Shown: positions 11,419-57,068, counted from the stretch's first letter. The stretch: DNA of 64,000 nt from Polyangia bacterium (GCA_030424595.1 JAUHWG010000011.1:1130-65129), one strand, 5' to 3'. Notes: a model not told the origin generated them from the letters alone. Translations and numbers: made by a program.

Positions 11419-11573
11419 GTGGCAATGTCCCGCGCGCTCTCCAGCCCTCGTCGTCCCGCTCGACCCGGCCAAAACGCGCACTACGACCCGGTGCAGCGGC
11501 GTACTGTCCAGGCCAAGCGGGCCGACGACTGCGGCGCGAGAGCACAGAGGACTCTCACCTCGGGCTGCTGCTA
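11419..11573 (+). repeat. Copy C of the GC-rich hairpin repeat family (about 155 bp)
   Basis: Shares the 5-prime motif gtggcaa.gtcccgcgcgctc and the 3-prime core gccgac.a.tgcggcgcgagagcaca with copies at 19561, 28150, 39358, 55590 and 56893; sits between convergent genes. Confidence 0.6.
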
Positions 11574-12968
11574 GAAGGAGCTCGACATCGACGACTGCTG
11601 CGACTGCTGCGGCGGCTGCGGCGGCCCTCGACGGGGTAGGCGGATGGTGAAGGTCGTGCCCGTCCCGACCGTGCTCTCGGCGACGATGGAGCCGCCCGCG
11701 AGCTCGACGAGCTTCTGGGTGATGGTCAAGCCGAGGCCGGTCCCCTTCTCGCGCATCACTCGGCTGCCGGAGACCTGCGTGAAGGGATCGAAGATCTGCC
11801 GGAGGTCATCGGCGGCGATGCCGACGCCGGTGTCGCGGACTCGGAAGCAGATCCGGTCGTCTTCCTCGATCGTCACGGTCACGTGGATCGAGCCGTCCTC
11901 CGTGAACTTGCAGGCGTTGGCGACGATGTTGACGAGGATCTGCTTGAGACGTTGGCTGTCGCCGCGGATCGTCGCCTCCGGATCGACCTCCACGGTGAGG
12001 CTGTTGCGGCCGGACTTGGCGGAGGGTTGGAGGAGGCTCGAGACCTCGTCGAGGAGGTCGGGAAGGACGATGTCCTCGAGCTCAAACTCGATCGCGTCGG
12101 CCTCGATCCGGGAGATGTCGAGGAGGTTGTTGATCAGGCGGAGCAGGTGCTTGCTGGCGCTGTGAATGTGCTCGAGGTCTGTCACCTGGTCGGGGTCCTC
12201 GTTGTCGAGGGCCTCCTCCCGGAGGAGCTCGCTGTAGCCGAGGATCGCGTTGAGCGGCGTTCTCAGCTCATGGCTCATGTGCCGGAGGAACTCGGTCTTG
12301 CGCTGGTCTGCCGTCTCGGCGGCCGCTCTCGCGAGCTCCAGCTCGGCGTTGACCTCGTCGAGCTGGGTCTCGTTGAGCACGCGGCTGCGCTCGTAGAAAT
12401 AGGCGAGCACGTAGGCCATCAGCGGCATCACGACCGCGCATGCGGTCAGGGTCGGCATCAAGGGGATGAGCTCGGGGGCGGCGGCGTGGGGGAGCGTCGC
12501 GGAGAGGATCCCAGCCGTGATGCTGATGGTGAGCGCCGCGATGCCGCCGAAGCGGACGCCGACGAAGAACGTCGCGACGAGGGGGACGAGGCTGAAGAGG
12601 AAGAGGATCGGCGCAGGGAAGACGCCGACGAGGATGTGCATGATCGGGAACGAGACGAGGAGGACGACCGAGAGGACGCCGCCCGCCAGGCGGTTCGAGC
12701 GGGTCACCCACTGCACCCAGGGGAGCTGGAGGAGGACGAGCGTGTCGATCGCCGCGACCGCGAGGCCGAGGCCCCAGGTGAAGCTAAACGCGCGGAAGAC
12801 CGTGAGGGCGAGGGCGAGGATGCCGATGCCCAAGGAGGCGGTGACGAGGACCCGGGCCCGCGCCCGGCTGTCGCTGTTCGCCAGGAGCTCCGGCGGGATC
12901 AACCGATCGAGGGCGACCCGGCTCGGCGAGCGCCCTTCGAGGGTCGAGTGTGCGGGGGACGGGGCCAT
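11571..12968 (-). CDS. Sensor histidine kinase with polytopic membrane input domain
   Basis: HisKA (LRHMSHELRTPLNAILGY) plus HATPase_c (G-boxes); about 6 TM helices at the N-terminus; start taken at the internal ATG at 12968. Confidence 0.8.
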   Translation of the reverse strand: MAPSPAHSTLEGRSPSRVALDRLIPPELLANSDSRARARVLVTASLGIGILALALTVFRAFSFTWGLGLAVAAIDTLVLLQLPWVQWVTRSNRLAGGVLSVVLLVSFPIMHILVGVFPAPILFLFSLVPLVATFFVGVRFGGIAALTISITAGILSATLPHAAAPELIPLMPTLTACAVVMPLMAYVLAYFYERSRVLNETQLDEVNAELELARAAAETADQRKTEFLRHMSHELRTPLNAILGYSELLREEALDNEDPDQVTDLEHIHSASKHLLRLINNLLDISRIEADAIEFELEDIVLPDLLDEVSSLLQPSAKSGRNSLTVEVDPEATIRGDSQRLKQILVNIVANACKFTEDGSIHVTVTIEEDDRICFRVRDTGVGIAADDLRQIFDPFTQVSGSRVMREKGTGLGLTITQKLVELAGGSIVAESTVGTGTTFTIRLPRRGPPQPPQQSQQSSMSSSF

Positions 12969-13119
12969 AGACCGACGGGGCTCGAGTATCGCAGCTAGGG
13001 ATGGGCTCCTGGGCAAAATGCCGAGAAAATGTCGGGTAGAGCGCTCTCCTGGGAATGTCGTCGATGGGCGCGAGCGCTCGTCGTGTTGGTGAGGTCTGCA
13101 GGAACGGCGCGGGCGATCG

Positions 13120-14118
13120 CTAGCGACCTCCAAGCGCTAGCGCGGCTCGCTCGGCGCCGAAGAGGCCGACTCGGGGCTCTGTGACCACAGCGATCTGGAG
13201 CCGCTCGAGGAGAGGACGCATCCGGCCCTTCGCGAGGAGGGCGCGGAGGAAGGCGCCGCCGCGAAGCAGCGGGAGGAGCTTGGGGGCGATCCCGCCGGCG
13301 ATGAAGAGTCCTCCGCTCGGGAGCACCTTCAGCGCGAGGTTCCCGGCCTCTGCGCCATAGATCCTGAGGAAGCGATCGATCGTCACGACGCACGCAGGAT
13401 CAGCGCCGCGCAGGGCTAGCTCGCCGATCACGGCGGCTGGATCCTCGTCGGCGAAGCGGCCCTCAACCGCCGGGGAAGAGGCCGCGAGCCCGTCGCGGAC
13501 GACGAACTCGTAGATCGTCGCGATGCCGACGCCCGAGACCAGACGCTCGTAGGAGACGTGCTCTAGGCGGGCGGAGAGGAGCTCGAGCAGTCGGATCTCA
13601 ACCGCGTCGCGGGGGGCGAAGTCGGCGTGCCCACCCTCCGTCGCGAGCACCCGAGGACCGGCGGGGGTGGGGACGAGGATCGCCTCGCCGAGCCCCGTCC
13701 CCGCGCCGATGATCGCCCGCGGTCCCGCGGGATCGATCTCACCTCCCTGGAGGACCTCGAGCTGGTCGCCCCTGAGCTGGTCGACGCCGAGGGCGAGCGC
13801 GTGGAAGTCATTGAGCAGGGAGAGCCGCTCAGGGCCTATGCCTAGCTCTGCCGCGAGCCCGTCGCGATCGACCATCCACGGGAGGTTGGTGGTCCTGCAG
13901 ACACCGTCGACGACCGGTCCGGCGATGCCGAAGGCGGCGACGTCGACCGGCGCCTGCCCGGCGCCGAGGAACGCTCGCAGCAGCGCGACCAGATCGGGGA
14001 AGTCGGCGCTCGGGTAGCGGCCGCTCGCGAGCTCGACTCGGCGTCCTCCCTCGCCGTCGAGCTCGGTCAGCGTCAGGTCTGTCTTGGTGCCGCCGATGTC
14101 CCCGGCCAGGATCCGCAT
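13120..14118 (-). CDS. glk: Glucokinase (Glk family)
   Basis: MRILAGDIGGTKTDL N-terminal ATP motif; 332 aa, typical of Glk. Confidence 0.8.
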   Translation of the reverse strand: MRILAGDIGGTKTDLTLTELDGEGGRRVELASGRYPSADFPDLVALLRAFLGAGQAPVDVAAFGIAGPVVDGVCRTTNLPWMVDRDGLAAELGIGPERLSLLNDFHALALGVDQLRGDQLEVLQGGEIDPAGPRAIIGAGTGLGEAILVPTPAGPRVLATEGGHADFAPRDAVEIRLLELLSARLEHVSYERLVSGVGIATIYEFVVRDGLAASSPAVEGRFADEDPAAVIGELALRGADPACVVTIDRFLRIYGAEAGNLALKVLPSGGLFIAGGIAPKLLPLLRGGAFLRALLAKGRMRPLLERLQIAVVTEPRVGLFGAERAALALGGR

Positions 14119-14255
14119 GGGCGATTCCTAGCACGGTCGCGGTCGCGCAGCGACAGGATGAGATCGTCGCTTGGGGCGAGTGCGCGCGCAGAGCATGCGA
14201 TCGGACGGCTGTGGGCGGCGACGTCGGCTGCGAAGGCGGGTAGCATTGGATCCCG

Positions 14256-55665: not shown

Positions 55666-55677
55666 CCCTCCGTGGTG

Positions 55678-56607
55678 ATGGCACGACGAGCCTCCCTGCC
55701 TCTCTGCGCTCAGGCGCTCCTCCTCGTCGGCTGTCTTACCCCTGCGGGAATCCCCGGGGCCTCGGCGACGACCTCCGGGGGGATGACGGGCTCGACCACG
55801 AGCTCGACCGCGAACTCGACCACGACGACGGCAGCCTCGTCGGCGAGCACTCGCGGGATGACGACCACAACCGCGGCAGAATCGACGATGACCGGCGCAG
55901 AGAGCTCCACCGGCTGCGGATTTCTCGGCTGCGACGACGTCGGCGAGCTGCCCTGCGACCAGTGGGCCCAGGACTGTCCGGAGGGCCAGAAATGTGTGCC
56001 TTACGCCGACGGTATGGGCTCGGTCTGGAACGCGCTCAAGTGCACGCCCGTCGACCCGCGCCCGGACGCCGTCGGGGACCCCTGCACGGTGACCGAGAGC
56101 CCGCTCAGCGGGGTCGACTCATGCGATGTCGGGGCGCTGTGCTACGGCGTCGACTCGCAGACCATGACGGGCTATTGCATCGCCCTCTGCTCCGGCTCGC
56201 TGCGCGAGCCTAGCTGCCCCGAGGGTTCTTCATGCACCATCCTTGGCCGCGGGATCGTGACCTTCTGCCTGCTCGATTGCTCTCCGCTCGAGCAGGACTG
56301 CCCTGACGGCTATCTCTGCACTGCGTCCTACGGCGGCGACCACTTCGGATGTAGCCTCGACATCTCTGGAGAAGCGGGCTCCTACGGCGATCCTTGCGAC
56401 TACCGCGGCCAATGCGATCCTGGCCTCGTCTGTGGGAGCGGCGACGAGGTCCCCGGGTGTATGTCCAACGGGTGCTGCACGCCCCTATGCGATATTTCGC
56501 AGCCGAACACCTGCCCCGGAGAGAAGCAGAGCTGCATCCCCTGGTTCGACGAGGGAGACGCGCCCCCGGGGCAGGACAACGTCGGGGTCTGCGCGACGGG
56601 GGCCTGA
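55678..56607 (+). CDS. Cys-rich secreted lipoprotein, paralog of 53909..54859
   Basis: MARRASLPLCAQALLLVGC lipobox; Thr-rich linker; same Cys spacing as the paralog. Confidence 0.65.
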   Translation: MARRASLPLCAQALLLVGCLTPAGIPGASATTSGGMTGSTTSSTANSTTTTAASSASTRGMTTTTAAESTMTGAESSTGCGFLGCDDVGELPCDQWAQDCPEGQKCVPYADGMGSVWNALKCTPVDPRPDAVGDPCTVTESPLSGVDSCDVGALCYGVDSQTMTGYCIALCSGSLREPSCPEGSSCTILGRGIVTFCLLDCSPLEQDCPDGYLCTASYGGDHFGCSLDISGEAGSYGDPCDYRGQCDPGLVCGSGDEVPGCMSNGCCTPLCDISQPNTCPGEKQSCIPWFDEGDAPPGQDNVGVCATGA

Positions 56608-56892
56608 TCGACGGGCAGTCGACGGGCAGTCGACGGGCACTTCGACAGCTCGGGCGCTGCGGTCCGCATTTCCAGCCGCGCGAGGACAGAACCGCCTATT
56701 CGCTGCCGAGATCGACATAGGGCAGCGCGTCGCCATCTCTCCTGGCTGGTCGCCGCGATTCTCCATATCCTCGTAGCCGAGCGCGCCTTGGCTGCCGCCA
56801 AATCCCCAGCACTTGACGCCGTGATCGTCGAGGAGCGCGCAGGCGTAGTTCGCCCCGGGCACCGCCTTGATCGCCGTCCGCCCGGCGCCGAG

Positions 56893-57068
56893 ATCGATCG
56901 GCGGCAGGGCGTCGCTCTCGCTTGCCCTCGGCGGCCCTCTCGGCTCCGCCAAGACTTGCAGTACGGCCCGGTACCGCGGCGTTTCATCCAAGCCGAGAGG
57001 ACCAACGATTGCTGCGCGAGAGCCCACGGGACGCTCACCACGGCCTCCGAGGAGCCCGGGGCTCCTCG
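56893..57068 (+). repeat. Copy B of the hairpin repeat family (near full length)
   Basis: cctctcggctccgccaagacttgcagtacggcccggtaccgcggcgtttcatccaagccgagaggaccaacgattgctgcgcgagagcccacgggacgctcaccacggcctcc. Confidence 0.6.

Follow-up and report, generated by a model that had tools for sequence, protein, structure and literature searches.

A CTAG-bounded palindromic repeat family, probably a MITE, at gene ends of a Nannocystaceae-like myxobacterium

Several families of short repeats provide a frame for the elements described here. [quoted passage not shown] The ERIC/IRU elements of enterobacteria are imperfect palindromes over their whole length (~127 bp), lie between genes or within operons, and vary in presence between strains; we know of no description of CTAG termini or stop-codon use for ERIC. 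REPINs are abundant, extragenic elements of ~100 nt in which two inverted conserved ends form a long hairpin. The insertion sequence IS630 targets CTAG with a 2-bp TA duplication (PMC2577343, Table 1, citing Tenzen & Ohtsubo 1991). MITEPsy1 of Pseudomonas syringae pv. phaseolicola, a non-coding element thought to derive from IS5/ISPsy2, uses CTAG or YTAA as target and leaves a 4-nt duplication of it (PMC3189936).

The window, i.e., the whole stretch of 64,000 nucleotides analyzed here, contained seven copies or fragments of one ~166-bp family. The host was an uncultured, marine-type, Nannocystaceae-like myxobacterium with 70% G+C. Family members and associated features were as follows:

11239-11414, no strand assigned: second, unrelated palindromic element, CTAG-bounded, with termini CCCTGAAATAAGCGCTGGCGTGAGG and, reverse-complemented, TCCTGAAGTAGGCGCTGCGGTGAGG
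11411-11574, plus strand: copy A, full length, CTAG to CTAG (nhmmer E = 8e-54; CM 121.8 bits)
19551-19717, plus strand: copy B, full length (nhmmer E = 5e-53)
19727-19738, plus strand: 12-nt left-terminus fragment GCAAAAGTCCCG, an exact local match to consensus positions 13-24
28162-28285, plus strand: copy C, left terminus CTCG-GAGGCCGTGG (nhmmer E = 3e-14)
39349-39437, plus strand: copy D, just the left half, spanning model positions 2-91 (nhmmer E = 1e-16)
39462-39661, plus strand: IS91-family fragment directly after truncated copy D (repeat D7)
51227-51287, plus strand: fragment G, right-terminal piece (nhmmer E = 1.6e-4; repeat I23)
55576-55584, no strand assigned: CTAGCCTAG, CTAG occurring twice, 5 nt apart, at the copy E terminus
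55581-55653, minus strand: copy E, right half, model positions 94-165 (nhmmer E = 5e-17)
~56893-57051, plus strand: copy F, nearly full length, left terminus degenerate (nhmmer E = 3e-52)

The six copies listed in an earlier note on this DNA proved to be real: they were found with an nhmmer profile built from three copies (E = 3e-14 to 8e-54) and also by independent repeat detection (D5, D20, I8, I9, I13, and I18). Copy C had lost most of its left arm by an internal deletion just after the left terminus, and the right ends of copies B and F had decayed to CTCG and CGAG, respectively. The 12-nt fragment lying 10 nt past the right end of copy B is probably the remnant of a second copy adjoining B. 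A direct repeat, GCAA.AGTCCCG, had been assigned to copy A but belongs to B (19566 and 19727). The reported fusion of copy D to an IS91 fragment was confirmed, as 39462-39661 was a 99.5-100% duplicate of 53657-53856, which lies within an ORF (53423-53872) with a Zn_Tnp_IS91 domain.

Beyond the window, ~28 further family copies were found on 21 metagenome contigs, with flanks unlike those in the window. Full copies measured 164-167 bp from CTAG to CTAG, within the size range of bacterial MITEs (under ~300 bp). The family consensus had no coding capacity and both palindrome arms were non-coding. Copies were dispersed, had unrelated flanks, and differed in presence or absence among close relatives; among derivatives, L001 and L003 carried copies with symmetric tip deletions, L013 had copies in tandem, and half copies also occurred. 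The conserved core had no matches in 185,579 reference genomes, and the family was absent from the nearest Nannocystaceae MAGs. It is probably a new but ordinary kind of MITE.

Family-wide, copies sat between genes. The earlier statement that all copies are intergenic nearly held in the window, with A, B, D, G, and F as exceptions. A minus-strand histidine kinase gene (11571-13133; kinase Pfam match) had its stop codon in the right CTAG of copy A (11571-11574), the left GTAG of copy B contained the TAG stop of gene 18985-19554, and the CTAG of copy D was the stop of gene 38450-39352. Fragment G occupied the last codons of an ORF, and its CTAG (51284-51287) stopped two convergent ORFs, 50649-51287 (plus strand) and 51284-52285 (minus strand). 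A possible ORF was overlapped by copy F. Copy E lay 2 nt past the stop codon that ends gene 54875-55579.

Among 24 aligned copies, the left terminal 4-mer had the consensus C in 20, T in 18, A in 15, and G in 20 copies; the corresponding counts at the right end were 20, 17, 15, and 16. Most copies had CTAG at both ends, and orthologous empty sites in relatives with 86-97% nucleotide identity to the window had a single CTAG. The empty site of copy B in L045 and L047 read ...GGGGC-CTAG-GTCC..., while in the window the element came directly after TAG. At copy C, one CTAG was present in L045 and L046, and the filled site in the window read CTCG followed by GAGGCCGTGG. Next to copy B on the right came a methyltransferase gene missing from the relatives, and this junction was without CTAG or a terminal repeat; the right junction of copy C had decayed. 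An intact duplication at the right junction was seen at neither of these two filled sites, the right-hand duplicate having itself been lost to decay or rearrangement. Across the 24 aligned copies, conservation of the terminal CTAGs was the same at the outer C/G as at the inner G/C, and no non-CTAG target was found that could tell a TA from a CTAG duplication. Family termini started with GAGGCC or CAGCCC. The CTAG termini, key to the stop-codon link, were missing from the earlier note.

The doubled motif CTAGCCTAG at copy E could be either the footprint of an excision or a target that was doubled. The motif CTAG[C/G]CTAG occurred at four sites in 186 kb, every one at an element terminus, and other Myxococcota DNA, totaling 315 kb, had none. 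L052 had one more such site, the fifth, and its orthologue in L054 was a single CTAG. These few cases are suggestive of cut-and-paste excision footprints.

Copy presence or absence was seen between strains at 93-97% identity. Copies missing in the window were present in relatives at L045 11372-11421 and L052 8851-9011, and in L056 an orthologous stop codon carried element sequence, with the best match on the opposite strand. Copies D (left) and F (right), in direct orientation, bound a 17.65-kb strain-specific segment that was absent from L054 and L052; the L054 junction was identified at F. A strain-specific segment of 803 nt with the methyltransferase gene adjoined copy B. Copies are thus markers of the breakpoints at which strains differ in gene content.

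The family consensus was a near-perfect palindrome from CTAG to CTAG that folded at -114.3 kcal/mol, its left end CTAG-CAGCCCGTGGCAAAAGTCCCGCGCGCTCTCGC pairing with its right end GCGAGAGCACACGGGACTTTCACCACGGCCTG-CTAG as terminal inverted repeats. Full copies were self-complementary, each matching the model on the opposite strand too, and folded into one long hairpin, with z = -5.7 (B), -3.75 (F), and -1.35 (A). Taken alone, the arms showed no gain in folding over shuffles (z = 0.08, 1.99, 0.53, and -0.70). For the 68 consensus pairs, 80.9% of cells were paired across copies vs 79.2% and 78.2% in two shuffled controls, an excess of 1.7-2.7 points; the observed level was reached in 0 of 500 shuffles. 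Compensatory changes were present, as 10 of the 68 pairs had a compensated alternative in at least two copies, and compensated pairs reached well beyond the outer 30 nt. Because per-copy pairing was only slightly above the shuffle control, selection as RNA at each locus is unlikely, and the excess is about that expected from neutral palindrome decay. The long hairpin appears to be a property of master copies that is not kept up at individual loci, and it may affect mRNA 3' ends incidentally.

An Rfam scan, suggested in the earlier note, gave 0 matches in the whole window, and a permissive search returned only chance matches of 24 and 21 bits to miRNA-precursor hairpins with gathering scores of 200 and 91. 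No T-run was found downstream of the hairpin in copies A, B, C, E, and F. This result and the occurrence of both orientations give no support to an intrinsic (Rho-independent) terminator.

The anatomy of the copies, their CTAG termini, the empty sites, the strain differences, the decayed pairing, and the family's limited distribution are direct observations. The family is very probably a MITE, a non-autonomous DNA transposon, that targets CTAG. The element would be a non-coding DNA-transposon derivative of 164-167 bp whose halves are inverted repeats of each other. We infer mobilization in trans, in which a transposase encoded elsewhere in the genome would bind the ~30-bp termini (CAGCCC/GAGGCC-GTGGCAAAAGTCCCG...) and move the element into the tetranucleotide CTAG. 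Insertion would duplicate either the central TA, in the IS630/Tc1-mariner way, or the whole CTAG, in the IS5-type way; we lean slightly toward TA. Each insertion would yield two new CTAGs, and because of this elements would pile up beside each other and mark the points where gene content changes between strains. An autonomous element with matching termini was not found in the window and ~600 kb of fetched loci, in 72,556 plasmids, or in viral contigs. No parent IS with matching termini was found in reference genomes, and neither an IS630-type nor an IS5-type transposase was found.

This family resembles ERIC/IRU in being a whole-length palindrome, whereas sequence and host are unrelated. No sequence relationship to IS630-family MITEs was detectable, and the host, an uncultured Nannocystaceae-like myxobacterium, also differs. 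The termini of those MITEs are complementary over 20-30 bp, whereas complementarity here runs over the entire 166 bp; the CTAG-S-CTAG sites would resemble the Tc1/mariner-type footprint of TA + 3 nt + TA. MITEPsy1 is 100 nt long with 18-nt terminal repeats only. Entrapment demonstrated the mobility of MITEPsy1, for which a candidate parent IS is known; here, strain comparison points to mobility. For an IS5-derived MITE, expected to have a 4-bp CTAG/YTAR duplication and ends starting with GA or GG, the CTAG flanks of the present family would be compatible; its GAGGCC... terminus starts with GAG, as does that of ISPsy19, GAGGGTGTAGACAAAAT (PMC3189936, Table 3).

In ~15 of 36 copies (~40%) the terminal CTAG ended a long, high-GC3 ORF, in either orientation relative to the abutting gene (6 vs 9 copies). 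TAG made up 23 of the 47 stops in the window (49%) and was preceded by C in 16 of these 23. CTAG was under-represented, with 61 observed vs 181 expected from base composition. Copies would lie on or beside TAG stop codons because the element inserts at CTAG. Since CTAG is rare and about half of the genes end in TAG, usually after C, many of the tolerated targets would be stops. Target duplication would rebuild the stop codon and spare a gene reading in from either side, so that insertion there would be harmless. The family is a clean example of target specificity explaining repeat location.

The earlier note had offered a MITE/REP-like element, an IS-end derivative, or a structured sRNA/terminator family. 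A MITE is favored by inverted-repeat termini, CTAG at both ends vs one CTAG at empty sites, dispersed copies with unrelated flanks, strain differences, and internally deleted derivatives. A REPIN or REP-like element would instead be moved by RAYT or another single-strand (HUH, Y1) transposase, with the single-stranded DNA hairpin as substrate and insertion 3' of CTAG, the element bringing its own terminal CTAG without a true duplication. This predicts the same pattern of CTAG-element-CTAG at filled sites and a single CTAG at empty sites. The entire element is a hairpin, copies are abundant and outside genes, and compensated pairs beyond the outer 30 nt would be expected if the hairpin matters for mobility. 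We nevertheless consider this origin unlikely. A REP forms a short palindrome by itself; the arms of this element do not fold alone and thus contain no REP unit. REPINs have no flanking duplicated target, whereas these copies are bounded by CTAG at both ends, and to our knowledge no REPIN has target specificity or a flanking repeat. In addition, the CTAG-S-CTAG sites look like cut-and-paste footprints, and no RAYT or Y1 gene was found among the window ORFs scanned, although one copy per genome is easily missed.

It is quite unlikely that the copies are a structured RNA family (U-tract-less terminators, mRNA 3' stabilizers, or sRNAs) selected at gene ends, with transposition only as historical origin. 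Very stable hairpins do lie immediately 3' of stop codons, some excess of pairing and covariation was seen (matched by none of the 500 shuffles), and ERIC and Correia elements affect mRNA stability or termination. However, no Rfam family was matched, the hairpin has no T-run after it, and copies face either way with respect to the gene they abut. Truncated and internally deleted copies occur, strains at 93-97% identity differ in which copies they have, and the small pairing excess is close to neutral decay. Site-specific recombination sites (integron attC-like or island att) that capture genes at 3' ends are a most improbable explanation. The copies are imperfect palindromes directly downstream of stops, D and F bracket the 17.65-kb segment in direct orientation, and the strain-specific methyltransferase gene adjoins B, but homologous recombination between dispersed copies explains the gene-content changes equally well. 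Neighboring genes are large, in both orientations, and syntenic in relatives without the element; copies are spaced at 5-10 kb and do not form a cassette array; and the window ORFs scanned included no integrase or tyrosine recombinase.

Within the CTAG-targeting MITE interpretation, a wider reading is tentative and rather doubtful. At least three palindromic mini-transposons, unrelated to one another, might form an active guild in the lineage, all using CTAG and moving by cut-and-paste that leaves CTAG-S-CTAG scars. They would preferentially occupy and regenerate TAG stops, would have raised CTAG density and TAG usage over time, and would make gene ends hot spots of gain and loss, as at the 803-nt segment beside B and the 17.65-kb segment between D and F. 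If this were true, selfish elements would shape stop-codon usage and gene 3'-end turnover. CTAG density was 1.21 per kb in the lineage vs 0.30 in sister lineages, and TAG stop usage was ~48% vs 27%. The second palindromic element (11239-11414) had the CTAG at 11411 in common with copy A, its left CTAG contained the stop of an amidase gene, and copies were also found in L012, L020, and L021.

General knowledge of MITEs is left unchanged by this family. Discovery of its parent transposase would provide a CTAG-specific enzyme from a phylum in which genetic tools are few. The hairpins and CTAG termini can mislead gene callers at gene 3' ends, and the repeats break short-read assemblies of the lineage: contigs L022 and L023 broke off inside copy B.

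All six repeat copies reported in the earlier note are real. Each was matched by a profile of the three long copies (E = 8e-54 to 3e-14) and recovered by an independent repeat search (families D5 and D20; inverted pairs I8, I9, I13, I18 and I23). A seventh piece was found by both the repeat search and the profile search.

Copies of the element in the window
11411-11574, copy A
19551-19717, copy B
28162-28285, copy C
39349-39437, plus strand, copy D (truncated)
51227-51287, copy G, a right-terminal fragment
55581-55653, minus strand, copy E
56893-57051, copy F

The alignment gave a consensus of 166 nt, CTAG-CAGCCCGTGGCAAAAGTCCCGCGCGCTCTCGC ... 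GCGGCGCGAGAGCACACGGGACTTTCACCACGGCCTG-CTAG, with termini CAGCCC/GAGGCC-GTGGCAAAAGTCCCG bounded by CTAG. Among 24 aligned copies, the terminal 4-mers were conserved at C20 T18 A15 G20 (left) and C20 T17 A15 G16 (right). Every full copy was also matched by the profile on its opposite strand; the element is thus a palindrome. The long hairpin predicted earlier was recovered in copies B, F and A, each folding into one (-96, -104 and -75 kcal/mol; z against dinucleotide shuffles -5.7, -3.75 and -1.35, respectively), and the consensus formed a single hairpin of 68 pairs (-114.3 kcal/mol). The G+C content of the window was 66-75% throughout. Several of the partial copies were short variants with a symmetrically deleted hairpin tip (comparison contigs L001 and L003), and others were half or tandem copies (L013). 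The true left end of copy C lies at 28162 (CTCG followed by GAGGCCGTGG), with an internal deletion next to it.

Close relatives, reached via homologues of two window proteins, aligned colinearly with the window (86-97% nucleotide identity). At site B, relatives L045 and L047 read ...GGGGC-CTAG-GTCCTCGACCGGGG..., where the TAG ends a 189-aa gene; the window's element B starts directly after this stop. The more distant relatives L048 and L050 also had no element at site B, making insertion the parsimonious direction. At site C, a single CTAG occurred in L045 and L046 exactly at the window's left terminus of C. Relatives also carried copies missing from the window: a right-half copy in L045 (11372-11421), whose CTAG was the stop codon of L045 gene 11419-12246, and a full copy in L052 (8851-9011) missing from L054 as well. 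Copy A was present in L045 in degenerate form. The region 3' of the amidase in the nearest MAGs was considered as an empty site for A; the element was absent there but the kinase gene was missing too, and this difference in gene content keeps the region from being a clean empty site.

The stop codon of the gene at 38450-39352 differed in state among four genomes.

State of the orthologous stop codon of gene 38450-39352
Window: copy D, plus orientation
L054: element positions 118-166 only
L052: six terminus nucleotides only
L056: element sequence, best match on the opposite strand

With four differing states at one stop codon, the same CTAG has apparently served as a target, or been remodelled, more than once. 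In L056 (10760-10960), the copy at this stop codon contained approximately eight 27-nt tandem repeats (GGCGCTCGTCGACGCTCCTGGGAGGC-like) expanded inside one arm.

CTAG occurred 61 times in the window versus 181 expected from base composition. TAG was the stop codon of 23 of the 47 confidently called window genes and was preceded by C in 16 of these. In approximately 15 of 36 copies, including A (right end), B, D and G, a long ORF with high GC3 ran in from outside and stopped at a terminal CTAG; genes entered six such copies at the left end and nine at the right. In copy G, one CTAG served as the stop for two convergent ORFs. Because CTAG reads alike on both strands and flanks the inserted element on either side, insertion into a stop-codon CTAG leaves the frame intact whichever strand carries the gene. 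The earlier observation that several copies lie only tens of nt from a stop codon is accounted for by CTAG insertion, with no function needed. CTAG density was 1.21 per kb in the element-bearing lineage versus 0.30 per kb in other Myxococcota loci, and TAG stops made up 23/47 in the window and 7/15 in L045 versus 5/17 in L048 and 4/16 in L050, all small samples.

The earlier note had left open a MITE or REP-like element, an IS-end derivative, or a structured sRNA or terminator family. Pairing was measured on an explicit consensus structure (MAFFT alignment) and on a covariance-model alignment. In the MAFFT alignment, 80.9% of cells paired versus 79.2 ± 0.5% with partners shuffled among copies, and both sides had changed in 34 cells versus 23.2 in shuffles (the observed value was reached by 2 of 500 shuffles). 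Sliding the partner column by 1-3 positions lowered pairing to 35-41%. The covariance-model alignment (27 copies, best strand each) gave 80.9% versus 78.2 ± 0.5% in shuffles. The proposed covariance check found a compensated alternative in at least two copies for 10 of the 68 pairs (e.g., CG 10/GC 7, UA 10/GC 7, AU 11/GC 9). This excess pairing, together with the compensated pairs, indicates that the palindrome was preserved while sub-families diverged. This preservation is a property of the master copies and reaches past the outer 30 nt; individual copies, in contrast, decay nearly as unconstrained sequence would. There was no T-run 3' of the hairpin, the arms did not fold on their own, and an Rfam scan of the window in gathering and permissive modes returned nothing relevant. 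Together with copy decay, these results argue against an RNA function maintained at individual loci, and the evidence on the arms also argues against a REP unit within each arm.

The anatomy is consistent with a MITE mobilised in trans by a transposase specific for CTAG. There are two precedents: IS630 inserts at CTAG and duplicates 2 bp, TA (PMC2577343, Table 1), and MITEPsy1, thought to derive from IS5, duplicates the 4-nt CTAG (PMC3189936). Within the terminal CTAG, inner and outer bases were equally conserved, so TA and CTAG duplication are not separable on this measure. Element-bearing DNA (186 kb) had four instances of the motif CTAG[C/G]CTAG (two CTAGs 5 nt apart), each at an element terminus; other Myxococcota DNA (315 kb) had none.

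CTAG[C/G]CTAG sites
Window, 55576-55584
L001, 552
L005, 1084
L008, 489
L052, about 9100

The L052 site, additional to those four, is at the MlaC stop codon, which read CTAGGCTAG in L052 and a single CTAG in L054. Read as TA-GCC-TA, the motif may be an excision footprint, one clue that would favour IS630/Tc1-type cut-and-paste. A fuzzy terminus match for a parent IS across all fetched DNA gave known copies only, and an ORF 5' of the half-copy on contig L021, transposase-like by eye, had no Pfam match; the family of the transposase is thus an inference. The repeats are explained as a family not described before, belonging to a well-known kind of element, with a neat target-site logic; no described myxobacterial MITE was found in the literature.

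Copies were also found beyond the window. Scanning JGI metagenome contigs with the conserved core matched 21 contigs from Ga0316189 and QGCY01, holding approximately 28 copies (at most three per contig) in flanks unlike the window. The element was absent from all 21 genome loci related through the amidase adjoining copy A (approximately 280 kb in all; best protein identity 71-77%, to Myxococcales/Nannocystaceae MAGs). None of 185,579 reference genomes matched the core exactly, neither core nor terminus matched IMG/VR viral contigs, and blastn of the consensus found no match in plasmids. From these absences, the family is restricted to a narrow, uncultured lineage.

Genes around the copies were ordinary chromosomal ones: penicillin amidase, histidine kinases, glucokinase, M1 and S9 peptidases, ABC transporters and a Rieske oxygenase. 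Apart from an IS91 zinc-binding domain (53423-53872), the window had no transposase-like signal. The reported fusion of copy D to an IS91 fragment was confirmed, truncated D being directly followed by a duplicate of part of this region. Sequence overlapping the domain occurred as dispersed, partly inverted copies, 79-100% identical.

IS91-related copies in the window
39462-40042
42285-42474
47011-47351
53112-53270
53657-53856

Nearby ORFs (40417-41469, 45660-46742, 47381-48490 and 53885-54859) had no Pfam match.

Directly oriented copies D and F bracketed a 17.65-kb segment (39355-57006) missing from L054 (flanks 96.5% identical) and L052; it contained the IS91 pieces, a TPR/thioredoxin protein, an LRR protein, the Rieske oxygenase, an SBF transporter fragment, and copies G and E. 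The idea that D and E came from a single copy, separated by an IS and an inversion, was rejected, since D and F bracket this strain-specific segment with E inside; sequence past E's break was unique. The 3' end of gene 38450-39352 recurred as degenerate duplicates near 57905-57945 and, twice, in L054 at 11900-12000. Relative to L045 and L047, positions 19555-20357 formed an 803-nt insertion of element B, a 77-nt spacer and a class-I SAM methyltransferase ORF (19795-20364), whose start directly follows the TAG of the CTAG seen at the empty site. At the right junction of the insertion there was no CTAG or terminal repeat, with similarity only at chance level; the last 7 nt of the ORF derive from the old flank. 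In place of a 4.9-kb window segment (21032-25932) with an M1 aminopeptidase and a DUF2339 membrane protein, L045 and L046 have 1.2 kb containing another gene and half a copy of the element; both breakpoints held CTAG stop codons (21024 and 25934).

A second palindromic mini-element of approximately 170 bp, unrelated to the first family, was also bounded by CTAG, with termini CCCTGAAATAAGCGCTGGCGTGAGG and, reverse-complemented, TCCTGAAGTAGGCGCTGCGGTGAGG. In every case it adjoined a first-family copy through a common CTAG, and in the window its left CTAG was the amidase stop codon. A third palindromic repeat, GAAAAT.GGGC.CAAGGT.GCCGACG..GTCGATC...GCGCGATTTTCATCGA, lay directly beside first-family copies on two unrelated contigs.

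Other repeats
Second mini-element: window 11239-11414; L012 35-159; L021 681-805; L020 2063-2120
Third palindromic repeat: L052 about 9015-9090; L019 about 2615-2690
Short in-frame tandem repeats, window: 17615-17757; 27609-27773; 38743-38815; 51110-51192; 60061-60264

Tandem repeats in the window included an 11-nt GATCGATCGCG array 3' of gene 16357-17607, an 18-nt repeat within a BRCT/pentapeptide gene, and 9-nt and 21-nt repeats elsewhere.
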